Source of the DNA: a virus
Reading direction: 5' to 3' (one strand)
IMG/VR virus record: IMGVR_UViG_3300045988_179014
Span: 224,001 to 288,000 of that record
Length of the DNA stretch: 64,000 nucleotides
Under the pieces are notes generated by a model. That model had not been told where the DNA came from. It searched no databases and saw only the letters and a list, made by a program, of their open reading frames with translations. How positions within the stretch are numbered: position 1 is the first letter of the stretch; every line of letters starts with the position of its first letter. This document shows, one piece after another, positions 2,577 through 48,908 of this stretch. Position numbers and translations under genes: made by a program.

Positions 2577-2649
2577 GGTGCTTCTGGCGGGAATCGAACC
2601 CACTTACGCGGTTTTAGGGACCACTGCTTGACCATTAAGCTTCAGAAGC
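2577..2649 (-). tRNA. tRNA with anticodon CUA (amber/UAG-reading suppressor type); CCA not encoded
   Basis: Manual cloverleaf on the reverse complement: acceptor GCUUCUG/CAGAAGC; D-stem GCUU/AAGC with GG in loop; anticodon stem GUGGU/ACCGC with loop CCCUAAA; T-arm GUGGG-UUCGAUU-CCCGC; discriminator A. Position 33 is C, not the usual U. Confidence 0.6.
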
Positions 2650-2702: not shown

Positions 2703-3482
2703 TCAACTGTTTGTAAAATCAGTTTCGGCTGTCAAAGCGGTTTTTGCCAGTCCTGGACGACGTAGTGGAGGATAGATTTCTGATGCGTCCCCTGCCCGAT
2801 ATAAGTCTGATGAACGTCCACCAACAATACTTGACGTGCGTTTTGTCCCCACCTCATACAGTAATCCTGGTACTGATTGAAGTTTACGACGAAAATTGCT
2901 TGGAATGATGGAAACTCCCCACACTATTTCATAGACTCGACGTAATTCTGACATGGTGAATGTTTCATCTTCCAAAAAATGATGAGCAATGGGGCTGTAC
3001 TTAATTTTGGCTCGAACCCGCTCCAGCCCATCATGAACAATGACATCATGGTCAAATGCCAACTCAAAATCATCACTGAGAACGTCTGCAACAGGGAAGA
3101 AATGAGCTTCTGCGGCATCATCTCCGGCTTTTGGCCGTTCTACTTGTGGAGCCAATGCCACATATGCTGTAGATACCACAAAACCTCGTGGGTCTCTACC
3201 AGGATTGCCGTAGGTTTTCAACTGTTCCAAGTAGCCATCTTCAATGGTTAAATTAGTTTCTTCCTTCAACTCGCGGGCAGCTGCATCATCCAACGATTCA
3301 TTGGTGTTAACAAAGCCCCCGGGAAGCGCCCATTTTCCTTTATTCGGATGGTCACCACGTTTTATCAACAAAATACATAGTTGCCCATTCCGGATTGTGA
3401 AAATTATCAAGTCAACTGTCACACCAACAGATGGATAGTCTGACATGTTATAACCAGCCAGAAAATCTTCTTCATCAATCAT
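2703..3482 (-). CDS. NUDIX hydrolase with C-terminal extension (ADP-ribose pyrophosphatase or NrtR-like)
   Basis: Nudix box GGFVNTNESLDDAAARELKEETNL (G-x5-E-x7-RE-x2-EE); adjacent to pncA and pncB. Confidence 0.65.
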   Translation of the reverse strand: MIDEEDFLAGYNMSDYPSVGVTVDLIIFTIRNGQLCILLIKRGDHPNKGKWALPGGFVNTNESLDDAAARELKEETNLTIEDGYLEQLKTYGNPGRDPRGFVVSTAYVALAPQVERPKAGDDAAEAHFFPVADVLSDDFELAFDHDVIVHDGLERVRAKIKYSPIAHHFLEDETFTMSELRRVYEIVWGVSIIPSNFRRKLQSVPGLLYEVGTKRTSSIVGGRSSDLYRAGDASEIYPPLRRPGLAKTALTAETDFTNS

Positions 3483-3551
3483 TGGTACTCCTTGTTCAAT
3501 AATGCCACTACTACTATTATATCGATAAGAATCAATATGATTATTAAGGTA

Positions 3552-3758
3552 CTACCATTGCTCTGATTGAGTGATTTTATGATTGAGTCGATGATGCCAT
3601 GTTATGTGAACAGTTCTATTGGCAACCAAAGAACCACATAGAACACAGATTGATAGCACAGGTGATTCTCCGGTTTTAGGATTCAATACTGGTAGCCTCA
3701 CAAATTCTGGAACTGGGAATGATTTGAGACCCCAAGGAGATTGGCTATCTTCATTCAT
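3552..3758 (-). CDS. Small Cys/His-containing protein (possible zinc ribbon)
   Basis: ATGA start/stop overlap with the pncA stop, suggesting translational coupling; CVLCGS...HITWHH. Confidence 0.3.
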   Translation of the reverse strand: MNEDSQSPWGLKSFPVPEFVRLPVLNPKTGESPVLSICVLCGSLVANRTVHITWHHRLNHKITQSEQW

Positions 3759-4345
3759 AGTATCTCAACGCCTGCTTTAAGAAAATCGTTAGTCAACAAT
3801 TTACGAACCTGTTCATTGTTAATTCCTACACAGAATCTTGACAAAATAGTAGTATGTAACCCTTCACGTACTGCATCCAAAGCCGTTTCTCGGACACAAT
3901 AATCAGTTGCAATACCCACGATAGCCACATTGTTTACGCCGAGTTCACGAAGCGCAGCAGCCAATGTTGTTCCATCTTCGGTCATTCCTTCAAAACCTGA
4001 ATAAGCTGCTGCAAACATACCTTTATGTACAGCAATAGAAACTCCACGTCCTCGCTCAGCATCTTTTCGTAATGCATTTGCTAAAGTTGGTACAAGACCT
4101 GCTCCTTCAGTATCAGCTACACAATGAACCGGCCAAGAATCAACAAAATCAGGGTTACTGGAAAAATGCGAACCTGGTTCAATATGCCAATCCTGAGTAG
4201 TGACCAGATAGTCATATTCATTCAAAGTCCCGTCATTAATCGCATCAGCCAAATCATGTGCAAGTTGAGACCCACCAGTAACGGCTAATGCTCCACCCTC
4301 TACGAAATCGTTCTGCACGTCCACAATAATCAATGCTGTGTTCAT
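3755..4345 (-). CDS. pncA: Nicotinamidase/pyrazinamidase (isochorismatase family)
   Basis: N-terminus ALIIVDVQNDFVEGGALAV is typical of PncA and isochorismatase-fold enzymes. Confidence 0.7.
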   Translation of the reverse strand: MNTALIIVDVQNDFVEGGALAVTGGSQLAHDLADAINDGTLNEYDYLVTTQDWHIEPGSHFSSNPDFVDSWPVHCVADTEGAGLVPTLANALRKDAERGRGVSIAVHKGMFAAAYSGFEGMTEDGTTLAAALRELGVNNVAIVGIATDYCVRETALDAVREGLHTTILSRFCVGINNEQVRKLLTNDFLKAGVEIL

Positions 4346-4346
4346 A

Positions 4347-4895
4347 TCATATTCCTGATTTTCTGCTTGTCCAGTTTAAATGTTCTTTCGCCCAGTCCAA
4401 TATACGAATGATATGTTTCAACTCAAGTCCATTGTGACTATTTGGTTGAATAACCAATGATGGCGCCAAGGTATTACCACGTACATGGTCTTCCCAAAAC
4501 TGTGGCGCTTTGTCATCTATCCAAACAAAAGGTCGTGGATTGTGTTGTTGGTGGTCTATGATGTAGTCTGCTTTCCACCGTGTCCAAGCTTTATAACCTT
4601 TTGTTTGAACATCAAAATTGGCAGGACTGTGTTGTGACAAATCTGCAAGACCCATTATTTCCGCTACTTTGCAAATATTGGCACCATCATTCCAAGTTGT
4701 GTGCCAAATGGAATCAAAACATCCAGTTGACAAAAGCTGCGATATCAATTGGACCGATTCCGGATTCCAATTGATTTGCGTTTTATGTGACAAAATTTCG
4801 CTATTATGTGTAGCGATACGTGCCCTAGTCGTGTTTGACGATGGCGTAATATTGTACACACCGTTGAAATCTGAGTATATTACAAAATTCATCAC
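4347..4895 (-). CDS. HAD-like hydrolase (degenerate motif I), function unknown
   Basis: IYSDFNGV resembles a DxDGx motif, with FVWIDD as motif IV; sits between pncA and pncB. Confidence 0.35.
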   Translation of the reverse strand: MMNFVIYSDFNGVYNITPSSNTTRARIATHNSEILSHKTQINWNPESVQLISQLLSTGCFDSIWHTTWNDGANICKVAEIMGLADLSQHSPANFDVQTKGYKAWTRWKADYIIDHQQHNPRPFVWIDDKAPQFWEDHVRGNTLAPSLVIQPNSHNGLELKHIIRILDWAKEHLNWTSRKSGI

Positions 4896-5211
4896 AGGTT
4901 CCTTAAATCAGTATCCATAATGTTTCCATTTTATCCCAGACCAGAGACAACAACAAAACCTGTGCATACTGTTCTTCAAGTTTCAAGTTTTCATGGTTCT
5001 AAGCGTCAAGGAAACATTTAGACACCTTGAAACCAGCATTACAACAATTTGTACAAACTGGAGTAAATCAGTCAACATCGTTTCCAATCACGACCACAAT
5101 GAATCACGCTACATTCGTTACTCGTTTCCAACATTGTCTCGACTGGAGAAATTAAATAATCTGTTGACAGCAATCATCTCTGAAATGTTTCATTGGTTGT
5201 TGTAATATGGG

Positions 5212-6507
5212 TTATTTTTCAACAACTTCAAACATGGGTTTTCCCGCAGAAGTCAACAATGCCTCTTTGGGCAGAGTACTCAGAGTGTACGCATGAAAAG
5301 CACGAGATTCCTCTATTGTTGGAATATGGTAGTTTCCTTCATTGACATACATTATTTGTACAGGATGAATTGAACCAGATGCGATATCGTCATGCTTCAA
5401 CGACCCAATTCGATAGTATTCACCAGTCATGATTCCATGGTCATAGGTGCGATAAGCTATTTTCAGCCCGCCAGTGGTTTTCTTCCCAGATGCATTTTTC
5501 GCTACTGGAACCATCTCTCCATTACTGTTTTCCCGTTCTACCAATTTGAACACCATTGAAGCAGTTGGATGACCTGAACCAGTTACCACACGAGTTCCGA
5601 CACCAATCCCATCAACTGGTGTTCCTTGGTCAACAAGTTCCGCAATAGTGTATTCATCAATGTCCGAGGAAAGAATAATTTTAGTGTTCACAGCTCCAAG
5701 TTCATCCAACAGGTTACGAGCTTTGACGGTTTCTTCATGCAAATCCCCAGAATCTATACGAATACCACCCAAACTAGGCCCAGCAACTTCTATTGCATTA
5801 CGAATACCTTGTTCAATGTTATATGTATCCACCAGTAATGTAGTTTCAACACCCAATGCATCAATTTGTGCTTGGAAAGCAGATTTTTCATCCTCAAAAT
5901 CTAATGTGAACGCATGGGCTGAAGTGCCAGTGGTAGGAATACCATAACACAATCCAGCTTCCAAATTTGATGTGGCACTGAAACCAGCAATATATGCAGC
6001 ACGAGCAGAATCAATAGCTGCCTTCTCATGAGTACGTCGTGAACCCATCTCAATCAGTGGCAGTCCTTGAGCGGCCACAACCATTCGTGAAGCAGCTGAC
6101 ATTACAGCAGAATCGTGGTTCAGGATGGACAATAGTATGGTTTCCAACAAAACAGCATCACCAAAGAACCCTTCAACTGTCAGAATTGGACTGTTGGGGA
6201 AATAGACGTCCCCTTCACGATATCCTCTGATACGTCCACTGAATGTATAATCACGAAGATAATCAATCGTATCAGAATGAATCATTGGGTCATTTTTCAA
6301 CAAATCAAGCTGTTCTTCTGTGAACCTGAAATCCTTCACTGCTTTAACCGCCCTGTTGACACCTCCCACAACCCCATAACGGCGACCTTTGGGAAGTGTA
6401 CGAGCAAACAAATCAAATGTGGCTTTATCAAATGCATGACCTGATTCCAAAGCCGCTTGCAGCATTGTGATTTCATACTTGTCTGTTTGAAAGGCTGTAC
6501 TTGCCAT
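5212..6507 (-). CDS. pncB: Nicotinate phosphoribosyltransferase
   Basis: 431 aa; N-terminus and overall pattern resemble the NAPRTase family (DKYEITM...); linked to pncA. Confidence 0.7.
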   Translation of the reverse strand: MASTAFQTDKYEITMLQAALESGHAFDKATFDLFARTLPKGRRYGVVGGVNRAVKAVKDFRFTEEQLDLLKNDPMIHSDTIDYLRDYTFSGRIRGYREGDVYFPNSPILTVEGFFGDAVLLETILLSILNHDSAVMSAASRMVVAAQGLPLIEMGSRRTHEKAAIDSARAAYIAGFSATSNLEAGLCYGIPTTGTSAHAFTLDFEDEKSAFQAQIDALGVETTLLVDTYNIEQGIRNAIEVAGPSLGGIRIDSGDLHEETVKARNLLDELGAVNTKIILSSDIDEYTIAELVDQGTPVDGIGVGTRVVTGSGHPTASMVFKLVERENSNGEMVPVAKNASGKKTTGGLKIAYRTYDHGIMTGEYYRIGSLKHDDIASGSIHPVQIMYVNEGNYHIPTIEESRAFHAYTLSTLPKEALLTSAGKPMFEVVEK

Positions 6508-6848
6508 CTTCGTCTCCTTGTTGTTTGTCCGGCGTTGGAGTTACCCGGTATTTTTATGACAATAATTGGTTGTCCCCGTATCCAGTGTACCATCAACTGA
6601 AAAACTACTCACCAATCAGGGTCAAGTCAATGTTTCGCAGCAAACGACGAATCTAACGTTACAAAACCAGTTTGATTACAAATAATCATATTCTGGCGGA
6701 ACAGTTAGCAATTTGAAACAATTAACATGTTGAAGTTATTCACAGATAACACTTTGACTAACGAAAACACCCGTCTGACAACACTTGATGAAGATGGCGA
6801 TGAATAAACCATGTTGATTTTTGACAAACCGGTGAATAGCCATTCTGT

Positions 6849-7352
6849 TTATTCAAGGTCTTCTGATTCCTGGGCGGAGTGTTTATCAAAATCTGGAACC
6901 TGCAATGATTTGTTAGCTTTGTCAATCATTGCTTCCAAAGATTTACGATACTTGGATTCAAACATGCGTAATTTTTCCACACGTTCCAACAATTCAGTTT
7001 CTTCCAGTTTCAAATCCTCTAATCTATCTTCTACTTCCTGCTCAGTGGTTTCGCGCCATTCTTTGATGTCATGATTTGCGGTCTCAATCATTTCGGCAGC
7101 TTTGGTTTCAGCCTCCAACACCAAATAGTCATGACGCTCCCGACCTTCGGAAACCAATCGGTCACGAGTTTCTTCGGCTTCTGTAATCAAAATTACGGCT
7201 TCTTCTTTGGCCTCATCAATCAATTGGTCATATATTTTCTGCACTGTATCCAACACCGTCACACTTTTATGGAAATCATTTTGGGTTGATTCTGTTGCAA
7301 TTTCAGACATAACCTGTTCAGAATTGGTTTCATTTTCTTCTTGGTTTGACAT
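6849..7352 (-). CDS. Acidic coiled-coil protein (DivIVA-like?)
   Basis: Highly charged E/K-rich heptad-like sequence; weak resemblance to DivIVA. Confidence 0.3.
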   Translation of the reverse strand: MSNQEENETNSEQVMSEIATESTQNDFHKSVTVLDTVQKIYDQLIDEAKEEAVILITEAEETRDRLVSEGRERHDYLVLEAETKAAEMIETANHDIKEWRETTEQEVEDRLEDLKLEETELLERVEKLRMFESKYRKSLEAMIDKANKSLQVPDFDKHSAQESEDLE

Positions 7353-7439
7353 GGCGTTTCCTTTCAGAATGCAAACAGGTCATCATGCAACACAATTGTT
7401 GTGACCATACTGTGTGCGAATATCACTCACATCTCACAA

Positions 7440-8642
7440 TCAATCCACGTTTTTCAGTTTCAACAATGCTGTCAAAGTCATTTCCGCATCTGCTAAAGCT
7501 CTATGCGCTCCTGTATAGGACTGTCCTGATGCTTCCACCAATGATTTGTTGGTGTTGTCAGGTGTTTCGGGCAGGAAGAATGTACTGACCATGCGAGTGT
7601 CCAATACTTCCAGCCCATTCGCTTGTAATGCATTGAAACCGAAAAGATTGTGCTGCAACTGTCCAATTTCAAATTTGGCATTATGCGCCACCATGACAGA
7701 ATCACTCAACATGGACAACACCTTGGTTTGCTTTTCTGGGTCATTCACGAAAACTTCTTTGTCTTTAATCTCATCCCATGAAATATGATGAACATGCTCA
7801 GCACCAGTACCATGAACTTTGGCGAAGTCTTGAGGAACTCCACTCATGAATGACATGGTTTCAACACGACCATCTGGATAACGTTTGACAATACCTACTT
7901 CAATGATGTTTGAATATGGACCTTTGTCAACATATCCACTCTCTTGAGAAGCGGCAACCTCCAAATCAATTGATACCAAAGGTTTATCTGTTCTCAAAGA
8001 CATATTGGCCCACATATGACGGTATGCCTCAGTGCGGGTCATTCCAGTTGCCATCAAATCATCAACTTGTTTCTTCACGTCTTCAGTTGACATGCCTGAA
8101 TACGAGGAAATCACTTGATTCGCGTCGGCCTCGTTTTCAGATGTGATATCAGGGTGGAAATTGTAAGGACCGTTCTTCTTCTTTTGTTGCCGTTTCCAAT
8201 CCTCAAATTTTGCTTGATTCAATGCTTTCTGGTCATCTCTTCGTTGTTGCAATTGGGCTCGTTCTTCAGAAGACATGTATCTTTCAGCTTCACGTTCTTT
8301 AGCTGTAGCCAAGAAATTCAATTGTTTGGCTTTTTGCACCGTCTGGAACCAACGAACACTGGCCAGAGCTTCTGGATTACCTTCAGCGGTTTTCAGTTCG
8401 TTGGCCAGTTTCCACATATTCCTTTTTGCAGCCCGAGATTTCAGAAACAACTCCTCTATTCGTTCAGCATTTGATGTTGAGGACTTGGACATTGTGTTCA
8501 CTACTTGATTGGACATTCTACGTTCATATGCGTCACGTGCTTCAGCTATAGAGTTGTAGTGGAACTCATCAGAATATGGGCATTGTCGTTTAGCAGAGCA
8601 ACGATTTACAACACCATTTTGAGGGTTTAAATGAAATAACAT
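7440..8642 (-). CDS. N-terminal Cys/His module fused to a DEDDh 3'-5' exonuclease (DnaQ-like)
   Basis: N-terminus NRCSAKRQCPYSDEFHYNSIAEARDAYERRM; C-terminus IDLEVAAS...HNAKFE...H-x4-D exonuclease motifs. Confidence 0.6.
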   Translation of the reverse strand: MLFHLNPQNGVVNRCSAKRQCPYSDEFHYNSIAEARDAYERRMSNQVVNTMSKSSTSNAERIEELFLKSRAAKRNMWKLANELKTAEGNPEALASVRWFQTVQKAKQLNFLATAKEREAERYMSSEERAQLQQRRDDQKALNQAKFEDWKRQQKKKNGPYNFHPDITSENEADANQVISSYSGMSTEDVKKQVDDLMATGMTRTEAYRHMWANMSLRTDKPLVSIDLEVAASQESGYVDKGPYSNIIEVGIVKRYPDGRVETMSFMSGVPQDFAKVHGTGAEHVHHISWDEIKDKEVFVNDPEKQTKVLSMLSDSVMVAHNAKFEIGQLQHNLFGFNALQANGLEVLDTRMVSTFFLPETPDNTNKSLVEASGQSYTGAHRALADAEMTLTALLKLKNVD

Positions 8643-8882
8643 GCCATCCTCCTATTTCAATCTTACATAGTTTGTATCTAACGATTCAACTACTCATGAT
8701 TCTTTCAAGAAGTACAGTTAACCGTGATTCTGACTGATAGTGAAATCGTAGCACGCAAACGAGCAATGTTGACTACAAAATAATATTGCGTTTCCTATTA
8801 TGCCCAAACCATCCTGAAATGACTCCAATGAATGCGTGAATATGCAATTATATTTCGAATTATGGAAAGCACAAACCAAGCT

Positions 8883-9025
8883 CCTAGAAGTGTTTTGAGC
8901 GTGATTTTGAAGGTATCACGAAGAAGCATTTCACGTAAAACTTCTTGAAAACACGAAAAACGCCCCCGAATAGGCTTGGTAGAATCTGGGCTATTCAAGG
9001 GGCGCTACAGAAAGCGATTTTATGG
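8883..9025 (-). repeat. Copy A of a ~150-bp repeated intergenic element containing an intrinsic terminator (minus-strand orientation)
   Basis: Aligns with 53573..53725 and 58233..58390; imperfect inverted repeat CGCCCCCGAATAGG...CCTATTCAAGGGGCG, followed on the minus strand by TTTTTCGTGTTTTC. Confidence 0.6.
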
Positions 9026-9051
9026 TTTTCTCATACACTCATTTTATGGTT

Positions 9052-29452: not shown

Positions 29453-30016
29453 TTATGGATACACAATGACAGAGGTGACAAAGCTCCAAGGAACATACTG
29501 GGTTAGAATCACATCATTCAAGGTTTTGTAAAACTTCAATCCTGCTGCTTGCATTGCATTACCATCAATGCTCAGTACAACAGGTATGCTCTTATGTTGA
29601 CGGGCAGCAGATAATGCTATTTTCTCATCTGATGACAAATGCACAAACAGTCGTGAACCAGGAACAATACCCCATTCACGGATAGTGCCTACTTTTGATG
29701 CTGTGGTGCCATGATAAATAGTTCCAGGATTGTCAACTGAATCTAATTCTATGGTTATTGGAATAGAATGTCCTTCAGTAGCCCAAACACGACCATTAAC
29801 AACAGCATAATGACCACTGCTATCTTCATCAACAATTTTATGAATCATGCTTTCAGAAGTGTTCAATGCTTTGGCTAAATCTGTAACTTCAACTGAACCA
29901 TCCTGGTGCATATCAACTTGATACTGTTCAGGAGCATGACATAGGGCCTGATTCATTTGTTGGGACAATTCAGTCAATTCCATGTCTCTCCTCAATTCCT
30001 CGATATCATTGTTCAA
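29453..30016 (-). CDS. kptA: RNA 2'-phosphotransferase Tpt1/KptA
   Basis: 187 aa; IYHGTTASKVGTIREWGIVPGSRLFVHLS matches the Tpt1 R-HGT-R-VHL signature. Confidence 0.6.
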   Translation of the reverse strand: MNNDIEELRRDMELTELSQQMNQALCHAPEQYQVDMHQDGSVEVTDLAKALNTSESMIHKIVDEDSSGHYAVVNGRVWATEGHSIPITIELDSVDNPGTIYHGTTASKVGTIREWGIVPGSRLFVHLSSDEKIALSAARQHKSIPVVLSIDGNAMQAAGLKFYKTLNDVILTQYVPWSFVTSVIVYP

Positions 30017-35592: not shown

Positions 35593-36693
35593 TCAGACTG
35601 TCCATAATCTGTCAAAACGGTCAGGTCCATATGATTCAATTGCTACTGGACCCAACATATTTGGTTTCACAGGTCCATTGTTGGTCATGATGTTGGAAAA
35701 TTGGTCCAACCAGCTTATGGCAAGATACGTTGGTTTTACACGTTCTATTGACCATTCCAGCATGTTTTGGTCCCAAAGTCCAGTACGAAAAGCACCGGCC
35801 CATTCAGATGTTCCATTGTGTGGTTCTGGTACTGTTACATGATTCTCATAAGGCATTGGACCTGCACCATGACGGGTAGCATATGTTCTCAAACAACCAT
35901 ATACTGTCACATCCTCCACACCAGCTTGTCGCAACATTGTTCTGGCATTACTTGGGGTAGTAGTGCTCCAGGTGTTGTGAGGTGGTTGACCAAAGTTTTC
36001 ATCCAAAAGAAACCCTTGAGCGCCTTCAAACACAGTATGCCCCACAGTGAGTTCATTCAGAAAATGGTCATTGTCCACCACTTTGAAAACCTGACTAAAT
36101 GCATCCATCATAGTACGAGCCATTGCAAGATAGGTTCCAGGTTCTTGCTCTTCCAATCCCATGTTCTGACCATAAAATTGGAGAAAATCCAGGATTGTAT
36201 CTATTGAGAACATGTCTTTTGCACGTAAAGGAGTATTTCCATGGTATTCCCAAGCAACCGTTTCCCCAAAACCTGTGCCAGTGGAGCCATGACGTGCTTC
36301 TCCTCTGGCTTTTTCCCGAGCATGATTCACAAACACATGTAAAGGAGTAGTCACTTTCGTAAGTTCTGACACATGAATAAAGCGGGTATCTGTTGTCAAA
36401 ACTGGTTTCAATGCTGTTTGTTCTTGCAATGCTGACAATGGGTCAATAGTGCAATATTCTGAAATCCATGTTGGAACTTGTGAAAATGTCCCAGACCCGT
36501 AACTGGAAAAAGTGTGTGACAGTTTTCCAACTTGTACATTGTGTGCAGCTTGTTGTCCCCCATTGAAGCGCACCACTCTTTTGGCTTTGTGACGATGTGC
36601 CAGGTAATCAGTTGTTGCGCCTTTGCATTCATCACCCCAGCCCAGACCCACCACAATGTCAGCAGTGGGTCGGGATGGATTTTTGAAAGTCAT
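35593..36693 (-). CDS. Adenylosuccinate synthetase homolog (PurA-like; short form, possibly PurZ-like)
   Basis: N-terminus IVVGLGWGDECKGATTDYL parallels the PurA P-loop VVVGxQWGDEGKGK; 366 aa versus about 430 for canonical PurA. Confidence 0.6.
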   Translation of the reverse strand: MTFKNPSRPTADIVVGLGWGDECKGATTDYLAHRHKAKRVVRFNGGQQAAHNVQVGKLSHTFSSYGSGTFSQVPTWISEYCTIDPLSALQEQTALKPVLTTDTRFIHVSELTKVTTPLHVFVNHAREKARGEARHGSTGTGFGETVAWEYHGNTPLRAKDMFSIDTILDFLQFYGQNMGLEEQEPGTYLAMARTMMDAFSQVFKVVDNDHFLNELTVGHTVFEGAQGFLLDENFGQPPHNTWSTTTPSNARTMLRQAGVEDVTVYGCLRTYATRHGAGPMPYENHVTVPEPHNGTSEWAGAFRTGLWDQNMLEWSIERVKPTYLAISWLDQFSNIMTNNGPVKPNMLGPVAIESYGPDRFDRLWTV

Positions 36694-37634
36694 CGTAACA
36701 CCTTTGGACCAGCATCGTTTTTACGTGCTAAAGTCTTCCCAACTCGAAGTGCTATTTCTTTACCTGCTGTTTCAGTTAAATCTCGTTCGATAGTGGTACG
36801 GTCGGTTCCTTCCGCGAAACCAACAACTGCGGCAATGGTTTCTGCAATGTTGTTGGGGTCTTCCACAATCAACACTTGCTTTTCTCCAAACAAATTGGCA
36901 TAGAATTCATGTGACCGTTGGAATCGTGCAGCTGAATTGTCAATTAGTAGTACCCATACATGCCATTTCTCAGTTACGGCTTTGGCAATTGATTCATTGC
37001 TCAAATCATCCAACAATGGCTGTTTGTCCCCAATGACTTCACGTACATGGTCTTTGTCGATAGGCACTTGTTTCTCATCTGCTATCAAAAACAAATGTCC
37101 TTTGTGTTTCCGTTTTTCCCAGGAATCTGTCTCGGTGTGAGTTGCTGCATAGTAAAGGAGAAGATTGCTGGTTTCACCATTGTTTCCTCCACCACCACCT
37201 TCTAGGAACATGTTGTCCAAGGCATCATCTACTCGGTTGTCAGATTCGAATTGACCAAACTGTAATGGGACTGAATCGCAATGTGCATCACCATACGTGG
37301 CTACTGCAACTTGTGGGTCCTTGGCGTATCCTTTATCCACCAATAGTTTGAATACTGTTCCCAGTTTTTGTTGCATCACTCTTGGGACAGACCCCATGGA
37401 ACCGGTAGAATCAAATGCAACAATGATGGGAAGGGAATTGGGATGTTCTTTTGAGTCTCGTGATTCTCTAACGTTCAACCCTACTTTGTTCAACTTTTTG
37501 GGGGTCAAATCCTCATGAGCCTTGTACACTCCGGAACTACGAACTGACCGGTCGTAACCAAACGTTGCACCAGTACGAATTTTGCTACTTGTAACACCTG
37601 AATATGTAGCAGCACTCCAAACTCCTCCACCCAT
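36690..37634 (-). CDS. von Willebrand factor A domain protein (TerY-like)
   Basis: MIDAS motif DSTGSMG near the N-terminus; Ter-cluster context. Confidence 0.55.
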   Translation of the reverse strand: MGGGVWSAATYSGVTSSKIRTGATFGYDRSVRSSGVYKAHEDLTPKKLNKVGLNVRESRDSKEHPNSLPIIVAFDSTGSMGSVPRVMQQKLGTVFKLLVDKGYAKDPQVAVATYGDAHCDSVPLQFGQFESDNRVDDALDNMFLEGGGGGNNGETSNLLLYYAATHTETDSWEKRKHKGHLFLIADEKQVPIDKDHVREVIGDKQPLLDDLSNESIAKAVTEKWHVWVLLIDNSAARFQRSHEFYANLFGEKQVLIVEDPNNIAETIAAVVGFAEGTDRTTIERDLTETAGKEIALRVGKTLARKNDAGPKVLR

Positions 37635-37736
37635 GATGACACTCTCCTTGGTCTAGTGGTGAACAGCTATGCGTTAAATATCAGTTTGACCCTTAACACT
37701 GTCATTGTACCAATTTGAACCCGAAAATAACTTATG

Positions 37737-38579
37737 TCAAATGCCTTTAGAAGGTGGAGCAGGAAGAGGGTGCCATTTCGACCCACCAAAATCCTTCTTC
37801 AACGCTGCTTCCCCACGATGAACCGCTTTCTCCACAGGTATTGGACGAAGGCGCATCTCATACAAAAACTTCCCCAACGCTGGCGAAGTTTTTCCAGATT
37901 CCAGCAATAAAGCAGCACTCTGGGACACAGACAGTTCAGTATCAGTTGGATTCCCTGAAAGATATCTTGGCAAGGTGAACGCATATGGAGAAACTTCCAA
38001 TGATGCACCAAGAGGAACAGCAGTCCACCATCCATCCAGTCGTAAACCATGCTCAGAAGGAAGAAGCGCTACTGTATTGGCATTGATGTCTCCATGAACC
38101 CAACCCTCCTGTGCTGCCAAATGAATCACTGTCAGCAGTCGACGCCAAATCCAAGCAATCGTTCTCTCGTCCAATTGTTCGAATGCACTTAGTAACCACC
38201 ATCCAGGCCCGTAACGGCTCTCCAGGGTTAGTTTGTTTCGATGTGGCTCCGGAACCCACTGCACCGGCTCAGAAGACTTCCAGAGGGCATTCTGTGCCTT
38301 CTCAGCCCTATCCAACAAATCCGAGTTCACTGCATCAAAAGACCAATAGATGCTTCCACCGCCAAACTTGCCTGTGGCCAATCGAAGACTCACATCTGGC
38401 GCATGGAACAATGATTCCAATTTTGTAAAAGCAAGATTGGCCTGAGGGTGTTTGCACACATCCGGATGAACTCGAACTTGTGCTTTCCTAAGACCTGTTT
38501 TATCGTGCTCCAACCCCAATTGGTCCCAACTGGTAGCATTGAGAACAATATTTACAAAAGCATCCATGGAAAACTCCAT
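37737..38579 (-). CDS. Protein-kinase-like / phosphotransferase-fold protein with J-domain-like N-terminus
   Basis: VHGDINANTV resembles the kinase catalytic loop HGDLxxxN; the N-terminal LRKAQVRVHPDVCK contains an HPD-like motif. Confidence 0.35.
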   Translation of the reverse strand: MEFSMDAFVNIVLNATSWDQLGLEHDKTGLRKAQVRVHPDVCKHPQANLAFTKLESLFHAPDVSLRLATGKFGGGSIYWSFDAVNSDLLDRAEKAQNALWKSSEPVQWVPEPHRNKLTLESRYGPGWWLLSAFEQLDERTIAWIWRRLLTVIHLAAQEGWVHGDINANTVALLPSEHGLRLDGWWTAVPLGASLEVSPYAFTLPRYLSGNPTDTELSVSQSAALLLESGKTSPALGKFLYEMRLRPIPVEKAVHRGEAALKKDFGGSKWHPLPAPPSKGI

Positions 38580-38618
38580 CTGTTTACAATATTACAAATG
38601 ACAATTACATGATGCCAA

Positions 38619-39488
38619 TTATTGCATGTTTCCATGTTGATTGTTTTGAACAGTTTTCGCAAAATTGGTCCATAACGTTTGAGGGTCGTTGTCGCTCAAA
38701 CCTGACATGCAACCATCATTCAATTCAACCACAGCCCAGCTACCATCAGGGTATTCAGCCATGTCAATCACATAGAACCGCGCCAAGTGTTTTGTCCGGT
38801 CAATTGCATCCATTAAAGCTGTCATGTATTTCGTAAAATCAAGTGGCTGTACACCACTGTATTCAACATGATTGCTCCAATAGAACCCTTCAGAAAGAAT
38901 TCGTCCATCAAGAACAAACACACGTCTTTCATGAAAAATCGGCCTTGAATCCACTGCTTTCCCCAATAGCCGAAAATGCTGAAATGGACGAATCACAATA
39001 CGTTGACTCCCCACATATGTATCACTGAGAACATTGTTGATAATCCTCAGCAAATCATGTTTAGTCTCCGCATAAGCAGCATCAAACCATTTGTTCTTTA
39101 TGGAATTGGTCTCTCCCTTGACAAAATATTCTCCTTCAGGGAGTTTCGGAATATCTTCTATAGAATAGGCTTTCGCTGTCAACCCATCCAAAAGATGGAC
39201 CCATGCAAACAAATCAGCAATGTTTCTATGTTGACTATAACTGTTGACCAGATGACTTCCCAGTAATTGAACCTCTTTGTCCAACTCTGGCCCGAAAGGA
39301 ATTGCTCGGAAACGCGGAATCACCAATGACCCAGCGGGAATTTGGCTGACCATGGTTCCCATATGAGTTCCAAACACTTCTCGGGCAGCATCCAACTCAT
39401 CAGATTCCAAAATGCCTATTTGTGAATCAGAATAAAAATAGTATGGTTGCAGCATTATTTCCCCTTGATATTGTTCGCCAAATCTCAT
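38619..39488 (-). CDS. ATP-grasp family ligase (Ter-associated biosynthetic module)
   Basis: RRVFVLDGRIL...VIDMAEYPDGSWAVVELNDG, typical ATP-grasp C-terminal core. Confidence 0.45.
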   Translation of the reverse strand: MRFGEQYQGEIMLQPYYFYSDSQIGILESDELDAAREVFGTHMGTMVSQIPAGSLVIPRFRAIPFGPELDKEVQLLGSHLVNSYSQHRNIADLFAWVHLLDGLTAKAYSIEDIPKLPEGEYFVKGETNSIKNKWFDAAYAETKHDLLRIINNVLSDTYVGSQRIVIRPFQHFRLLGKAVDSRPIFHERRVFVLDGRILSEGFYWSNHVEYSGVQPLDFTKYMTALMDAIDRTKHLARFYVIDMAEYPDGSWAVVELNDGCMSGLSDNDPQTLWTNFAKTVQNNQHGNMQ

Positions 39489-39509
39489 TATGGGTATGAT
39501 GATGCTAAT

Positions 39510-39731
39510 TTATGGAAGAGTTGACCAAATTTCTTTGCAGGTCGGGCAAATAGGAAATTCCTTGTAATCTCCGAAAGGTACCCACTTTTTACCACACAAC
39601 GCGGTAGCCGGAATACCATCAAAAATGGCACGCTCCAGCTCATCTTTTCTCACATAATGGGCGAACTTATCGTGATTCCCATCATCATTCACAAGTTGCT
39701 TTTCTTCAACCAGCTCATCCAAAACAGTCAT
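39510..39731 (-). CDS. Small Cys-containing protein (DUF3039-like?)
   Basis: CGKKWVPFGDYKEFPICPTC motif. Confidence 0.35.
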   Translation of the reverse strand: MTVLDELVEEKQLVNDDGNHDKFAHYVRKDELERAIFDGIPATALCGKKWVPFGDYKEFPICPTCKEIWSTLP

Positions 39732-39987
39732 TCATACTCCTATCAATCAAAACCTTGAATCCATGATAACACTCCTTCACCACTTGAACAAGTTTGAAGT
39801 TGTCACCAATCAACAGCACTAGATAAACTCATTCCCCCGACCGAACCTGTTACAAGGCAAACACAATTGAATCCTCCTTCATGTATCTTGTGTTTTTGTT
39901 GAGATTATCAGAACAGGAGTGTGGATTGTTTTAACAAAATAGTTCCAAGCATGTGTTATTATGTTAGCTTCTCTATTATGTTATTCA

Positions 39988-40785
39988 TCAACAAACAACA
40001 TGGTCTCGAACAGTGCGCACAATTTCTACTGAAGCTGCCGAACCTTTTTCACAAGTGCGTTTCATGTTGCCAGCATTGTTTCCTTGATTCACGCCATGAA
40101 ACGGAACAATGAACTCAGCAACTTCATCAGCCATGGACAAATCCAGAATACTGTCTCCAGCAGCAAAACTATAACCATAGCCAAAACGAGCAATGATTTC
40201 GGCTACTGCACGTCCTTTACTGATTGGACGAGGAATCAAATAATGTTTTCTTCCTTGTCGTGAATACATTTGATTGTAGTCTTCAGCCATTGCAGCAATC
40301 ATTGTTTCCAGTTTTTGATGATATCCTAACTCAGTGACTACATATGCGAAAAACCCATCAGCATCATGAACTGCTCTGACCCCATCCAATGTGGAAAAAG
40401 TTTTCACAACTTGCTGCAAAACCTGACTTGGAGAATATTCTTCCTGTAGCACCAAGTCTTGCATCATTCGGGTCCAGTTCATGTCTTCCTGTCCATCAAT
40501 TAGTATTTTTGCACCATTGAGAATGATTGCACAATTGTATTGAATCTGCGGGAATTGGATTCTTTGGAATTGACGCATGGTTCGTGTGGTTGTTGGAATG
40601 AAATCAAAAACCTTGGCAGCATGGTCATGTAGAATCTGATATGTTTCCCAGGCCATATAACCTACTGGGGAATTATTACGTTCCTCAACCACCACATGAC
40701 CAGTTGTTTTCTGTCCATGTGAATACAACCCCCGCTGTGAAAAGACAAGAGTATCATCCAAATCAGAGAACAAAACAGTTTTCAT
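39988..40785 (-). CDS. HAD-superfamily phosphatase (Ter-associated)
   Basis: Motif I LFSDLDDTLVFS at the N-terminus. Confidence 0.55.
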   Translation of the reverse strand: MKTVLFSDLDDTLVFSQRGLYSHGQKTTGHVVVEERNNSPVGYMAWETYQILHDHAAKVFDFIPTTTRTMRQFQRIQFPQIQYNCAIILNGAKILIDGQEDMNWTRMMQDLVLQEEYSPSQVLQQVVKTFSTLDGVRAVHDADGFFAYVVTELGYHQKLETMIAAMAEDYNQMYSRQGRKHYLIPRPISKGRAVAEIIARFGYGYSFAAGDSILDLSMADEVAEFIVPFHGVNQGNNAGNMKRTCEKGSAASVEIVRTVRDHVVC

Positions 40786-41945
40786 ATTGCTGCCATTCCG
40801 GTGTGTCCAATGGCTCCACGACTGTATTGAGGATGAATTAAACCAACACAGGCATACGGCAAATCAGACTTTTCCTCCACAGGCACATTTCGTTGATGTG
40901 CCAAAAGTAGAACATGGGTCAATGCGGTTTTGTCTTCAGGTCGTATGAGAATCCGCCATGGTACTCGTCGCAATAAAACTCTCGTTGTCTCCCCTACCCC
41001 AGGTTTCACCAAGTTGACATCATGAATACCATATTCCTCACTGATTTGTTCCACCATGGTCCACCCCATCCAAGACGGTTCATCATATTCGTGAACTCTC
41101 AAAGCCTCATCCACAACATCAAACAATTCAGAACCAAAATGTTCAATTACAGCATCAATGAAATACTGTGACACATCCATAGCAGCAAATTTACGATAAA
41201 ACTTGGCTCCATGGTAATCATTAGGCCCAATACTGTGATTCAAAACAGTACGTGAAATCAAACCCGACACAGTAGAGTTCAAACATGCTGATGGAATCAG
41301 ATAATCCTCCCTGGTCCCATAAACACGAACGCAAGAACCAGGGTCCGCCAGAACTGCCAACTCACTGTTGAAAACAACGCCTTCCTGTTCTGCAAAAAGT
41401 TTCAACGCTTGTGAAAGTTCCTTCGTTATGGCTCCTTTACCCGTCCATCCATCAATGAAAACAACACAGTCAGGGTTGTGATGTTTTGCAATATAGCGCA
41501 ACGCATTGAAATCGATACCTTTTCCTCGAACAATACTGACCGCATAGTGTGGAACCTGTATCTGATAACGCTGCTCCAAATAACGTTTGACCAGAATTCC
41601 AACAGGTGTCCCCGCACGAGCCAACGACACCAGAACCGGATTCCCGCCTCGCAGAAACCGAACCTGTTCAGCTACCATGCCAACCGCTTTCGCCAGTTTC
41701 TCACTGTTTTGGGCAAGAGATGAAAAGAACAATTGAACATACTCGTCAGATGGTACATATTCCACAGGCAAGGATTCAGCATAGTGTGCTCTACCTGATT
41801 GTATTGCTTCTTCCCGTTCCTCAACTGATGCTTCCAGTTTGCTTCTGGACAAATCTTTCAACAACCAAGCAACATCATCAAAACAGTATGAACCGAACTG
41901 AGGGCCATGCAAAGGTTTCGGTAATATAACATCTTCTGGAATCAT
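40782..41945 (-). CDS. Ter-cluster-associated protein, possibly divergent PRTase-like
   Basis: CVVFIDGWTGKGAI weakly resembles a PRTase nucleotide-binding loop; gene overlaps both neighbours, so likely in an operon. Confidence 0.3.
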   Translation of the reverse strand: MIPEDVILPKPLHGPQFGSYCFDDVAWLLKDLSRSKLEASVEEREEAIQSGRAHYAESLPVEYVPSDEYVQLFFSSLAQNSEKLAKAVGMVAEQVRFLRGGNPVLVSLARAGTPVGILVKRYLEQRYQIQVPHYAVSIVRGKGIDFNALRYIAKHHNPDCVVFIDGWTGKGAITKELSQALKLFAEQEGVVFNSELAVLADPGSCVRVYGTREDYLIPSACLNSTVSGLISRTVLNHSIGPNDYHGAKFYRKFAAMDVSQYFIDAVIEHFGSELFDVVDEALRVHEYDEPSWMGWTMVEQISEEYGIHDVNLVKPGVGETTRVLLRRVPWRILIRPEDKTALTHVLLLAHQRNVPVEEKSDLPYACVGLIHPQYSRGAIGHTGMAAI

Positions 41946-43267
41946 ATGGATTGTCCTTCCGTCATTGTCAAAACTGTTATAGTACTGGTTCGCCCTTGAA
42001 ATGCTCTCAACAATGGTTCAATACTGTAATGCCCTATTTGACTGTGAACAGGTATGACAATATGGTCATAATCCCAACCAATGTTGTAAGCATAACGTTT
42101 CACATTGTCACATTCCAACAAATAACGAATCCGGTCTTTGATAGCATAATCATCCCTGTCAGCGCTGAGAACCGGCGACCTTGTGGTAGACGAAAAATTG
42201 ACATCATATCCGTCTGTTTCCAATGAAGAAGCCAACAGGAAAGGCAGGAACATGTCTTCCTCTATTCCCAATACCAGAACCTTCTCATCAGGACACACAG
42301 CGGTTTTCTGTTTCCATTCATCAACCAAATGAAACAAATTCCAGAAATCATCATTCTGCACACCTTGTGAAAGAGGTTTGTATCCACTATTGGTGACTTC
42401 ATGTCTATATACTGTAGTTTTGCGTTTAGTTTTTACAGGTTCAGGTAATTGTTTCAACTGATTCAACAAAGGTTGCGCTTTTTTCACTGAATCATTCGGA
42501 ACATTCAACTCCATGGAAAGCAATGAAACAACAGTGATTTGAATACCCAGATTGTGTGCAAACTGTTTGAAAACCTTGTGTGCTTTTTGAGTTCTTAAAT
42601 CCGTGAGTGTGGCAATATAATAATGAGTGTGATGCTGATGTGATTCAAACAGTTCAATGGTGTTCATAACTGTGTTCCCTGTGGTCAGTTCATCATCCAC
42701 CAAAACAATGATTCGTTCAGGTTCATCCAATATGTTTGTTGTTTCTGGTGTGATGTGATGAGAACTGGCATGAGAATGGGACTCTTCAAAACTGCCATAA
42801 TCTTGATACTCACTGATGGGGTAACGGGTGGAATGAATATAACTTGCTCTCAGATGTGATGCCACCAGTGCGCCCAAATTGGTGGCAGTTTCAGCATAAC
42901 CAAACACAGTTATTGGTGTTGACAGTTTGTGCAATAATGGTAAAGATGAGTAATGGCTCTTCAACGCTTTTTGCATCATATGAGCGGATTCCAGCTGTAG
43001 CATGAGTGAATCCACAGTGGGCGATGTGTGGTGGGCCTGTATCTGCCATGCCAGTTCTGCGGCTGCATGATTGATTATACTTGGTTTCTGCGGAACATGT
43101 TTCCCCAGAAGATTGGACACCAACAAATGTGCTCTTTTCGGGTTTTTACGTAATGCCATACCCAGAAATGACTGAAAAGCTTGAAATTGTGTAGTGTTTT
43201 TGGGTCTAATGTTCAAAGCATTGCTGACAAAATCACCAGACCATGTGTTGTGTAGTGTTTCAGTCAT
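41942..43267 (-). CDS. Phosphoribosyltransferase (type I PRTase domain with N-terminal extension)
   Basis: RIIVLVDDELTTGNTV is the canonical PRPP-binding motif. Confidence 0.6.
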   Translation of the reverse strand: MTETLHNTWSGDFVSNALNIRPKNTTQFQAFQSFLGMALRKNPKRAHLLVSNLLGKHVPQKPSIINHAAAELAWQIQAHHTSPTVDSLMLQLESAHMMQKALKSHYSSLPLLHKLSTPITVFGYAETATNLGALVASHLRASYIHSTRYPISEYQDYGSFEESHSHASSHHITPETTNILDEPERIIVLVDDELTTGNTVMNTIELFESHQHHTHYYIATLTDLRTQKAHKVFKQFAHNLGIQITVVSLLSMELNVPNDSVKKAQPLLNQLKQLPEPVKTKRKTTVYRHEVTNSGYKPLSQGVQNDDFWNLFHLVDEWKQKTAVCPDEKVLVLGIEEDMFLPFLLASSLETDGYDVNFSSTTRSPVLSADRDDYAIKDRIRYLLECDNVKRYAYNIGWDYDHIVIPVHSQIGHYSIEPLLRAFQGRTSTITVLTMTEGQSI

Positions 43268-43270
43268 TGA

Positions 43271-44443
43271 TTACACCATATATTGTTCCAGGAAATCAGC
43301 AAAACCCACATGTTCACGACTTACTCCAAACATTCGGGCACGGGATTGAATGTTTCGCGCCCAAGCAGTGTGTGGTTTGACTTCATTCATTTTGTTTCCA
43401 TATGTGGAAGCCATGACACCACCATTGTCGTCCCTGCTCAAAATGTCCATGGCATCAACATACTCTTCATGTGAAACAACCATCAGAGAATGAACAATGC
43501 CAACATGACTGGGGTGAATGACTGTTTTTCCTGTTATCCCGTTCAACTTGTCCAATTGTACTTCGCGAATGAAAGTGTCATTGCCTTCTGTCACCAGTTT
43601 TGCACGCAGGGTTTTGTCATGGGCAAAAATGCTTTCACACAACAATGGTTTGAAAGTACGTTCAGAAGGCGCAAAATGTTCCCAGACCGCGCCAGTGATG
43701 ACACGATTGTCTTCTGCTCGTCCCAACATGTTCACAATGTCCGAAATGGCAGAAGCAACAACATGGACATCATAAACAGTGAATTCTCGGGACCGGCGCA
43801 ACCCATACGCAGAAGACATGTCAGTGGCTCCAATACGTACTGCCAATAAAGAATCCATTGAATGGGCCAGAATACGTTGCACATGGGAGAGAGTGTAGTG
43901 ACGGGTGTCCTGATGAATAATCCGAGGCGACTCAATCACTGGCATGTAATACAAGCTGGTCGTAGCAGTTCTGTTGTAACACTGCAACACATCCACAAAT
44001 GCTTGACCACGAGACAAATCATCAAACTTGGGAAAAACAAAGCCAGTCAAACTTGATAGCAATATACCGTTTTGTTCAATAATGTGTTCTAAATGTTCAG
44101 GTGAGCGAACACGTACAAACAACAATGGCAAATCAGAATTACCAATTGCTGCTAATTTGCGTAATAATTCATACAAATTGTGCTCTGCTTCTTTCACCTT
44201 CTCGTCTGGTATCGAATCCTCCAAACAGAGAACCACCGAAGTGGTATCGTTCTGATAGGCTTTTTTCAAATCCTCTAACAAATCAGAACGTGTGGCAGGC
44301 ATATACAATGTTGCTCCCAAAGAATAACTGAGCAATTTTTTATCAGTATATTGGTTGAATCTTTCCGGGAGGCGATAGAATAAATCTTTTTCAGCTGGAG
44401 TGTTACGTAAAAAATTGAAATGTCTCACAATCAGTCCTATCAC
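43271..44443 (-). CDS. HpcH/HpaI aldolase / citrate-lyase beta-like TIM-barrel C-C lyase (Ter-associated)
   Basis: Size, position in the PRTase / HAD / ATP-grasp operon, and overall pattern; assignment is tentative. Confidence 0.4.
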   Translation of the reverse strand: MIGLIVRHFNFLRNTPAEKDLFYRLPERFNQYTDKKLLSYSLGATLYMPATRSDLLEDLKKAYQNDTTSVVLCLEDSIPDEKVKEAEHNLYELLRKLAAIGNSDLPLLFVRVRSPEHLEHIIEQNGILLSSLTGFVFPKFDDLSRGQAFVDVLQCYNRTATTSLYYMPVIESPRIIHQDTRHYTLSHVQRILAHSMDSLLAVRIGATDMSSAYGLRRSREFTVYDVHVVASAISDIVNMLGRAEDNRVITGAVWEHFAPSERTFKPLLCESIFAHDKTLRAKLVTEGNDTFIREVQLDKLNGITGKTVIHPSHVGIVHSLMVVSHEEYVDAMDILSRDDNGGVMASTYGNKMNEVKPHTAWARNIQSRARMFGVSREHVGFADFLEQYMV

Positions 44444-45731: not shown

Positions 45732-45794
45732 AGTATCTCCTTATTCTAACGATTAACCTAATAATAGCACGAAACATATAATATGGCACATACA

Positions 45795-46268: not shown

Positions 46269-46324
46269 GCCTTACCAGAAAAGGAGGGGCGAACATGAAC
46301 CACCCCTCCTCATCTCAAATAGAT

Positions 46325-47554: not shown

Positions 47555-47654
47555 ATGAATTCCTTTTGATTCTATGGATTTTTATGCTGAAACGGATAGG
47601 GTGGAATTGGTTTTGCTTCCTTCCCACCCCATCCGCTTTGATTATTCATCACAA

Positions 47655-48236: not shown

Positions 48237-48276
48237 GATTTTTCCTTTCGTATTTGATGTTATTGTTTAATCTATA

Positions 48277-48873: not shown

Positions 48874-48908
48874 GTTAAACTCCTTTTACAAATAGGATAG
48901 GTAATTGA

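Follow-up and report, generated by a model that had tools for sequence, protein, structure and literature searches.

What use would a large phage-like element have for genes that recycle nicotinamide, and how might it decide when to express them? Both questions are raised by a 64,000-nucleotide stretch of the IMG/VR virus record IMGVR_UViG_3300045988_179014 (positions 224,001 to 288,000 of the record), which we call the window and number from its first letter. Genes for a nicotinamidase (PncA) and a nicotinate phosphoribosyltransferase (PncB) lie there in one block with genes for a NUDIX protein resembling the repressor NrtR, a HAD-like protein and a small zinc-finger-like protein, and the leader of pncB contains a compact RNA that resembles the NAD+-II riboswitch. 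On balance we favor the view that a huge phage-like element carries this block as a mobile module which recycles nicotinamide and regulates itself.

A preliminary description, made from the letters of the window, had grouped five open reading frames (ORFs) at 2703-6507 in one co-directional block. All five do lie there on the minus strand, and the domain and motif calls for PncA, PncB, the NUDIX protein, the HAD-like protein and the small zinc protein hold. Families were assigned by Pfam scans of the 55 window ORFs, with NCBIfam, PHROGs, Rfam and ARAGORN also used. In the direction of transcription, the cassette and its candidate control elements are as follows.

6584-6592, minus strand: promoter-like extended -10 (TGGTACACT) upstream of pncB, predicted by reading the sequence
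6512-6551, minus strand: candidate riboswitch, a 40-nt H-type pseudoknot in the 5' untranslated region of pncB, one copy in the window
5212-6507, minus strand: pncB, nicotinate phosphoribosyltransferase, 431 aa (NCBIfam and PDB matches)
4896-5211, no strand: 316-nt spacer separating pncB from the HAD gene, with a 70-codon ORF on the plus strand (4993-5205) and, in addition, an imperfect palindrome (5039-5066)
4347-4895, minus strand: HAD_SAK_2 phosphatase-like protein, 182 aa (Pfam, 31.4 bits; cut-off 27.5)
3755-4345, minus strand: pncA, nicotinamidase, 196 aa (Pfam Isochorismatase, E=5e-21)
3552-3758, minus strand: 68-aa protein with the motif C-x2-C-x9-H-x3-H (C2H2-like), always between pncA and nrtR and conserved in five lineages
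3525-3547, no strand: 23-bp palindrome TTAATAATCA-TAT-TGATTCTTAT, candidate NrtR operator, abutting a TATAAT (3516-3521) upstream of nrtR
2703-3482, minus strand: nrtR-like gene encoding a NUDIX domain and an NrtR winged helix, 68-80% identical across the clade

The identities of the two enzymes are clear. PncB exceeds the cut-offs of two curated NCBIfam equivalog models (NF006698, 577.2 bits against a cut-off of 531; TIGR01513, 400.3 against 297.4) and matches PDB entry 2F7F with E=4e-60. PncA matches the M. tuberculosis enzyme (3PL1, E=5e-48), and the catalytic residues D8, K96 and C138 and the metal ligands D49, H51, H57 and H71 are all identical; its 103.9 bits fall below the cut-off of 174 for NCBIfam NF008623, a model built on the E. 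coli type. The grouping of these genes is also conserved. In relatives with 62-78% PncB identity (loci cited below by L number), on contigs ranging from 44 kb to 697 kb, PncB, PncA and NrtR are kept together and the cassette adjoins PNKP/2H-SAK RNA-repair genes, with variable inserts. Because this gene order is kept in independent relatives, the clustering is not due to chance. Of the cassette proteins, NrtR and PncB are conserved best, at 68-78% identity, with PncA and the HAD protein at 47-60%. Natural fusions were also encountered, namely five proteins of 445-447 aa (P0190, P0192, P0197, P0200 and P0202) that join isochorismatase, NUDIX and NrtR_WHD domains, and a PncB relative of 665 aa with an isochorismatase domain (P0100); such fusions support a functional link between parts of the cassette.

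Two further proteins are encoded in the cassette. An AlphaFold2 model of the HAD protein (pLDDT 82) has as its best Foldseek matches the cap-less HAD proteins MDP-1, Lem4, KDN-9-P phosphatase and T4 PNKP, with TM ~0.5, so that structure gives only a generic cap-less HAD fold, and a sequence search of the PDB gave no match. By tblastn across the loci, only one sub-clade has the HAD gene, that which unites the window with L003, L019 and L020. The spacer between it and pncB is just 96 nt in L003, and therefore looks like a lineage-specific insertion in the window. The 68-aa protein belongs to no family in Pfam, NCBIfam or PHROGs; strain L001 has Arg in place of its first Cys.

How would such a module work? 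PncA would convert nicotinamide to nicotinate, and PncB would combine nicotinate with phosphoribosyl pyrophosphate (PRPP), with ATP, to give nicotinate mononucleotide (NaMN). NadD and NadE, supplied by the host or from elsewhere in the element, would then complete the route to NAD+. Nicotinamide and ADP-ribose would arise both from the element's own NAD+ consumers, four ADP-ribosyltransferases (ARTs) and Tpt1, and from host NADase immunity. Control could be exerted at two levels. Binding of ADP-ribose would be expected to release an NrtR-type repressor from 23-bp operators and, if the NAD+-II riboswitch is a fair guide, the leader pseudoknot would block ribosome binding at high levels of a nicotinamide nucleotide and free the site as NAD+ declines. 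The open form would permit translation of pncB and, in relatives, of nadE as well.

The consumers invoked here, along with an ADP-ribosylglycohydrolase, had been reported elsewhere in the window by the preliminary description, and Pfam found every one of them.

9052-10095, minus strand: ADP-ribosylglycohydrolase (Pfam, PHROG)
10466-14064, minus strand: three tandem ADP-ribosyltransferases (Pfam)
29453-30016, minus strand: Tpt1/KptA RNA 2'-phosphotransferase (Pfam, E=1e-24), which consumes NAD+ and releases nicotinamide
50767-51570, minus strand: ART-PolyVal ADP-ribosyltransferase (Pfam, E=2e-14)

The first two ART paralogues have a near-identical N-terminus (MCRLASIRRCPSH...RRRAAYAAKKA).

Is the module then directed at host immunity, or at the element's own needs? 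One could argue that the cassette sustains the element's own four ARTs and Tpt1 and clears inhibitory nicotinamide, rather than countering immunity. NAD+ consumers are indeed dense in the window, and Bacillus phage G (see below) has Tpt1 inside its NAD cluster; on the other hand, NAD+-reconstitution pathways are proven counter-defences in other phages. We regard supply of the element's own enzymes as a serious possibility that falls somewhat short of probable, and while counter-defence could be the main purpose of the module, we are inclined to doubt it.

The regulatory side of the proposed module begins with the pncB leader. Comparison of the intergenic DNA of relatives uncovered an island, ACCGGGUAACUCCAACGCCGGACAAACAACAAGGAG, followed by 6 nt and the AUG start codon, which is near-identical in relatives although the flanking DNA has diverged. 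The island can form a helix, P1, between CCGG (6548-6545) and CCGG (6532-6529), with 4-5 bp across the copies, and a pseudoknot helix (PK) between CUCC (6540-6537) and GGAG (6517-6514), the latter being the Shine-Dalgarno (SD) sequence. Ten distinct copies of this RNA are known from six lineages, and they stand only before genes of NAD synthesis or their operon leaders. The RNA directly precedes pncB in the window and L008, precedes short leader ORFs that are themselves followed by pncB in L003/L019, L020 (two in tandem), L021 and L022 (two in tandem), and directly precedes nadE, at a distance of 5-10 nt, in L022 and L030. Both nadE copies were left out of the training of covariance model R1, which recovers them with E=3e-8 and 5e-11.

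Covariation maintains both helices. In P1, CCGG:CCGG is replaced by CUGG:CCAG and CCGAG:CUCGG; in the pseudoknot, CUCC:GGAG is replaced by CUAA:UUAG, and CUUC or UUCC pairs with GGAG through G-U pairs. Over nine sequences, 92.6% of the cells are paired (PK 100%, P1 86.7%), and five pairs have changed on both sides. The observed covariation is matched by none of 500 column shuffles and by no slid register. We judge it likely that the leader is a structured regulatory RNA that sequesters the SD sequence. In three lineages the pncB operon opens with the RNA motif and, immediately behind it, the reading frame of a conserved leader peptide of 43-47 aa (..HSL.IDL....VPQFDK[VI][VI][VI][LI]V.HG..; L003 9094-9231, L019 1687-1830, L020 about 1656-1790); the window has none.

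The motif is found in JGI metagenomes, searched with a pattern of fixed P1, in this clade only. Two scans of 185,579 species genomes with fixed-P1 (CCGG) patterns gave no match in one case and, in the other, one chance match inside a myxobacterial gene. In IMG/VR the pattern returned either nothing or chance matches in GC-rich coding DNA only, and a P1-free version returned no true copy. No Rfam family matches the pncB leader RNA. One sub-threshold match stood out, to the RNA family cow-rumen-1 (RF02946), with 11-21 bits against a gathering score of 53 (window 6516-6588, minus strand); this orphan family has the string UAAnUCCAnCGCCGGACA in common with the pncB leader and may be related to the leader motif. 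Both the RNA and the 23-bp palindrome appear to be new, and neither is mentioned in the preliminary description.

What might such an RNA sense? The leader was aligned manually to the NAD+-II riboswitch of S. parasanguinis, with sequence and structure taken from PMC10085692. NAD+-II runs in the order AGAGC-GUUG-C(G)UCC-G-AAA-[P1a]-ACG-GCUCU-UUAAAAA-CAAAA-GGAG, and the window RNA has the same order of elements, CCGG-GUAA-CUCC-A-ACG-CCGG-ACAAACAA-CAA-GGAG. Common to both are P1, GU, a C-U-C-C strand pairing with the GGAG of the SD sequence, A-C-G, P1', an A-rich strand and C-A before the SD sequence, as well as linkage to genes of NAD metabolism and a translational-OFF architecture (PMC7749635, PMC10085692). 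In ligand site 1 of NAD+-II, nicotinamide is held by the G33:C46 pair, in company with a G6:C32:A47:U7 quadruple and the pseudoknot (PMC10085692). The invariant columns of the leader RNA, G, U, C, G, C and A, are the equivalents of site-1 G6, U7, C32, G33, C46 and A47; U, A and G of the pseudoknot are also invariant. The downstream genes differ, being pncB, nadE and leader ORFs of huge phage-like elements here and pnuC in Streptococcus for NAD+-II, and no pairing of an NAD+-II riboswitch with pncB was found in the literature searched.

Perhaps, instead, the leader is bound by a protein (such as the 68-aa protein or NrtR) or serves translation constitutively, and looks like NAD+-II only by coincidence. 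The cassette does encode a small, conserved, putative nucleic-acid-binding protein, and several features of the RNA tell against the riboswitch. The helices are short and the folding energy of the hairpin is ordinary (z ~0). P1a is absent, with just 4 nt (A-A/U-C-G) between the 5' strand of the pseudoknot and P1' in 10/10 copies; two adenines are missing before the SD sequence; and the closing pair is G:C where NAD+-II has C5:G34, of which C5 contacts the phosphate of nicotinamide mononucleotide (NMN). The bulged G11 of NAD+-II is missing as well. The Rfam NAD+-II model gives no match to a 76-nt query even at E<=10. Finally, the covariation comes from just 9-10 sequences and the double changes in the pseudoknot all belong to one lineage, which makes it supportive rather than conclusive.

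Against a coincidental likeness, it is P1 and the pairing of the loop with the SD sequence that covariation maintains, the invariant bases are those of the NAD+-II site-1 core, and the RNA keeps to pncB, nadE and the leader ORFs of pncB operons. In addition, a two-strand NAD+-II construct without P1a is reported still to assemble with NMN (PMC10085692), so that a natural form without P1a is plausible. We therefore consider a protein-binding site or constitutive element unlikely, though it deserves to be kept in mind. To return to the riboswitch-like reading, we suppose by analogy that the leader RNA works like NAD+-II, and do not file it as a member of that family. Whether it senses a nicotinamide nucleotide is close to an even question on which we lean slightly towards doubt; the ligand might be NAD+ or NMN, or NaMN given the genes controlled, and the presumed direction of the switch is OFF.

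The second proposed sensor is the NUDIX protein. The preliminary description had raised the possibility that it is NrtR-like, and a search of its C-terminal domain bore this out: the NUDIX domain (PF00293, E=2.3e-19, residues 27-141) is accompanied by an NrtR winged helix (NrtR_WHD, PF21906, 44.6 bits against a cut-off of 27, E=1.6e-11). The protein aligns over its full length with Shewanella oneidensis NrtR (3GZ5, E=5e-36). The NCBIfam equivalog NF050029 is its top-scoring family, at 158.5 bits and below the cut-off of 400, as befits a divergent member.

The candidate operator has the clade consensus TTAAGTATCA-N3-TGATAyTTAA, with a TTCA/TGAA variant in some lineages, and lies at or just after the -10. 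It heads the pncB operons of L003, L019, L007 and L022, precedes pncA in L010 and nadE in L022, and stands before nrtR in L007, L008, L021 and the window. A pattern search of the window gave 2 matches against 0.06 expected. A second site was recognized far from the cassette.

37674-37696, no strand: operator-like palindrome TTAAATATCAGTTTGACCCTTAA, which closely follows an extended -10 and precedes the VWA / PurA-like genes

This site was outside the training set, and with a position weight matrix it scores 21.1 bits, more than any of 200 shuffles (maximum 19.4). The extended -10 of pncB, in its TGGTAnnnT form, likewise recurs before the VWA operon, the tRNA described below and the operon of L003. 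In bacteria, NrtR operators are palindromes of 21-23 bp from which ADP-ribose acts as anti-repressor (PMC2330246; MsNrtR, PMC6800001). The phage-like element has the same type of Nudix and winged helix-turn-helix (wHTH) repressor linked to NAD genes, and a palindrome of the same size and symmetry. It differs from the bacterial regulons in being mobile rather than chromosomal, in an operator (TTAAGTATCA-N3-TGATAyTTAA) unlike the Mycobacterium or Streptococcus motifs, and in its intact Nudix box. Judging from these sequence features, we lean modestly towards the palindrome being the NrtR operator.

Could the NUDIX-wHTH protein nevertheless be mainly an ADP-ribose pyrophosphatase, which would clear ADP-ribose and return its products, ribose-5-phosphate and AMP, to the synthesis of PRPP and NAD+? 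Its Nudix box (GX5EX7REUXEEXGU) is intact save for the last G (RELKEET), and that of Shewanella NrtR is degenerate (RKLAEKT). However, the winged-helix domain has been retained and is strongly conserved, and palindromes lie at the cassette promoters. The Synechocystis protein Slr1690 has ADP-ribose pyrophosphatase activity. The two activities can coexist, Slr1690 being an NrtR validated in vitro that was also studied biochemically (PMC2330246). We find a mainly enzymatic role improbable. We also considered and rejected a read-through fusion of the small ORF with nrtR, in which a TAG end, in frame and separated from nrtR by 23 sense codons, would be read by the amber-suppressor tRNA encoded after nrtR; a relative with 98% identity has TAG-TAA at this position, and nrtR has its own AAGGAG-N5-ATG.

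In what kind of genome does the cassette reside? PncB copies with 98% identity are found among database relatives on contigs of 337,015, 337,400 and 343,299 bp from human oral metagenomes. An extrachromosomal-type contig of ~337 kb thus recurs in at least three oral samples, and the window corresponds to ~58-122 kb of one such contig. Two of the ~337-kb contigs are ERZ988510 k127_102411 and ERZ27262748 k119_28504. The neighborhood inspected amounts to ~84 kb (the 64-kb window and ~20 kb of extra flank), with ~250 kb of the genome outside it. Those ~84 kb contain neither ribosomal genes nor others of the cellular core, and most ORFs belong to no family. Recognizable genes include a T5orf172-helicase, a YqaJ/RecE-like exonuclease, PNKP with a 2H phosphoesterase, ART-PolyVal, a ter-type cluster, the beta subunit of ribonucleotide reductase, NucS and a tRNA(CUA); PHROG matches were obtained for PNKP, Tpt1 (phrog_5470), the ADP-ribosylglycohydrolase and the RecE-like exonuclease. 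A megablast search of phages and plasmids with 54 kb of the window gave no match. That a salvage module lies on a mobile element seems very likely. The evidence points to an element that is large and extrachromosomal, and that it is a huge phage seems likely as well.

The notion of an ordinary host chromosomal pncA-pncB housekeeping locus with NrtR, as in Lactobacillus or Clostridium, is highly improbable. In its favor, bacterial nrtR-pncA-pncB operons are known (PMC2330246), and PncA and PncB are closest to actinobacterial and enterococcal enzymes. Against it, the ~337-kb contig is reproducible, and the ~84 kb devoid of core cellular genes consist mostly of unknown ORFs, ARTs, RNA-repair genes and the ter cluster and include an amber-suppressor tRNA. 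Nor do pncA, nrtR or HAD genes adjoin the pncB of Dermabacteraceae, the closest from a named bacterium (65% identity), and the 185,579 species genomes gave no true copy of the RNA with either fixed-P1 pattern. The cassette is not host housekeeping, the scenario that the preliminary description had named as its refutation, and is a conserved feature of the element's clade.

How, then, does the element compare with known NAD systems? Bacillus phage G, a cultured jumbo phage (NC_023719, 200.1-207.4 kb), has a co-directional series consisting of gp273 (NUDIX and NrtR_WHD, annotated merely as a MutT/NUDIX hydrolase), gp275 (isochorismatase/PncA), gp277 (NAPRT/PncB) and gp280 (Tpt1). Unlike the window, phage G also has NadD (gp281) and NadE (gp283), so that its route is complete; its proteins are only 28-44% identical to those of the window, it has no HAD_SAK_2 protein, and it gives no match to the RNA model. 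The metagenomic "NAD-jumbo phages" (Microbiome 2024, PMC11662467) carry clustered salvage/Preiss-Handler genes (pncB, nadD, nadE, pncA) together with many NAD+ consumers; that survey does not mention NrtR, and the window differs in the absence of nadD and nadE. By the features that define that group, the present element has pncB and contigs of 337,015-343,299 bp, and nadD, nadE and hallmark genes are absent from the ~84 kb seen. The enzymatic content is thus already known for jumbo phages, from phage G and the 2024 survey. The deamidating route inferred by the preliminary description is present in the form of PncA and PncB, but is less new for a phage than that description implied (phage G, PMC11662467). 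The same cassette was also sought in the published huge phages LR756504 and LR745208 and rejected, each having one homologue, no cluster and no RNA motif. Among bacteria, nrtR-pncA-pncB operons were described in 2008 (Rodionov, PMC2330246).

Other phages restore NAD+ by the experimentally proven NAD+ reconstitution pathways NARP1, NARP2 and NARP3, the last of which is PnuC with NadR; NARP1-AP adds a Macro-domain phosphatase. Like these, the present cassette would be a phage-borne means of restoring NAD+ from breakdown products, and NARP operons can take in an accessory phosphatase. The enzymes differ: Adps with Namat, NAMPT with NMNAT, or PnuC with NadR in the NARP systems, and deamidating PncA and PncB with a HAD-fold protein here. 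None of those three pairs was found among the 55 window ORFs by Pfam. By analogy with NARP1-AP, the HAD protein could possibly be a phosphatase acting on ADP-ribose phosphate, a suggestion that we offer as pure conjecture. One relative, L030 (Ga0377230_0000014, 211 kb), encodes, beside PncB, NadE and PncA (4378-10435), an NMN transporter resembling PnuC and a NadR-kinase-like AAA_28 protein; this combination amounts to a NARP3-like pair adjoining Preiss-Handler genes, and the RNA motif precedes its NadE gene.

Several observations speak against a complete, self-regulated module in a phage, and these need to be weighed together. First, NadD and NadE are absent from the 64-kb window and the ~20 kb of extra flank, which leaves the pathway incomplete here; relatives L010, L022 and L030 carry nadE. 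Second, in L001 (ERZ988510, 12163-12602), a strain with 98% identity, pncA has suffered an internal deletion and a frameshift and has lost the catalytic Lys and Cys, so that the deamidase step, or the full route, must be dispensable at least sometimes; pncA is intact in L016, the other strain with 98% identity. Third, motif I of the HAD protein is DFNGV (DxN) in this lineage and DFDGV (DxD) in relatives. Fourth, inspection of the ~84 kb, including the two flanks, turned up no gene for a capsid, portal or terminase, so that the word "phage" is itself an inference and a megaplasmid-like element is possible.

The remaining difficulties concern the operator. The palindrome does not have the GT-N7-AC core common to many NrtR sites. 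Moreover, an intact operator at the pncB promoter of the window was looked for and rejected, since what remains there is a degenerate remnant with a spacer one base shorter. Given this decay, NrtR may not control pncB in this genome. NrtR control probably covers nrtR and the second operon, with pncB keeping the RNA element. The fullest version of the proposal is that the leader is a minimal NAD+-II relative without P1a, limited to a clade of huge phage-like elements, which reads the nicotinamide-nucleotide pool and, together with an ADP-ribose-sensing NrtR, forms a two-input detector of NAD+ cleavage; this we put forward as an unlikely, though not far-fetched, possibility.

The surroundings of the cassette include further features of interest, beginning with the tRNA directly downstream of nrtR.

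2577-2649, minus strand: tRNA with anticodon CUA, an amber suppressor (ARAGORN and Rfam)

ARAGORN labels this gene tRNA-Pyl, and it has an extended -10 of its own, TGGTATTCT. It lies 3' of nrtR in four loci of the sub-clade (the window, L001 13711-13783, L003 14256-14331 and L020 7202-7275), and is a syntenic neighbor of the NAD genes, not clearly a member of their pathway. TAG is the rarest stop codon in the window (5/79 long ORFs), which, together with the suppressor tRNA, suggests TAG recoding elsewhere in the genome. Right after the tRNA comes a 17-nt inverted repeat, ATGATAACTTTATCACT / AGTGATAACTTTATCAT (2532-2575), which could be a terminator or a binding site.

Farther away, three ORFs of 441-447 aa between 30142 and 35436 (minus strand) have no solid Pfam match (two are sub-threshold) and no PHROG match; they may be paralogous, and are interleaved with ORFs of 194 aa and 141 aa (DUF7695). 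The ter-type cluster comprises 13 ORFs at 35593-50000 (minus strand), among them TerC/DUF475, three TerD proteins, TelA, a C-C lyase, PRTase_2-TRSP and StiP-PELOTA. It also holds a HAD protein, an R2K ATP-grasp protein, a VWA protein and an adenylosuccinate-synthetase-like protein of 366 aa, whose short length we take to be reminiscent of PurZ. A gene for the NucS endonuclease is found at 57384-58058 (plus strand) and also in relative L032 (15217-15368), where it extends past the end of the retrieved sequence. Elsewhere NucS is typically an enzyme of Actinobacteria and archaea; its presence here, along with an LGFP/Amidase_2 protein in L003, gives a hint of an actinobacterial host.

One of the central themes of bacterial antiviral immunity is the depletion of NAD+, and the known viral answers, NARP1-3, have been described as sets of enzymes, not as regulated circuits. 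The authors of the NARP2 work pointed out that constitutive NAD+ synthesis is wasteful and somewhat toxic. The cassette in the window suggests a regulated solution, with a sensor of the product (ADP-ribose, by way of NrtR) and a sensor of the pool (the riboswitch-like RNA) placed on one module. The enzymes are not new for jumbo phages; the more novel part is the regulatory layer, above all the compact NAD+-II-like RNA. This leader would be the smallest natural NAD+-II architecture and the first outside pnuC leaders, and at 40 nt it can be synthesized directly. If the proposed circuit is correct, resynthesis of NAD+ through pncB and nadE would be switched on only during NAD+ destruction, and what the element encodes would be not a constitutive countermeasure but a viral sensor of NADase immunity.

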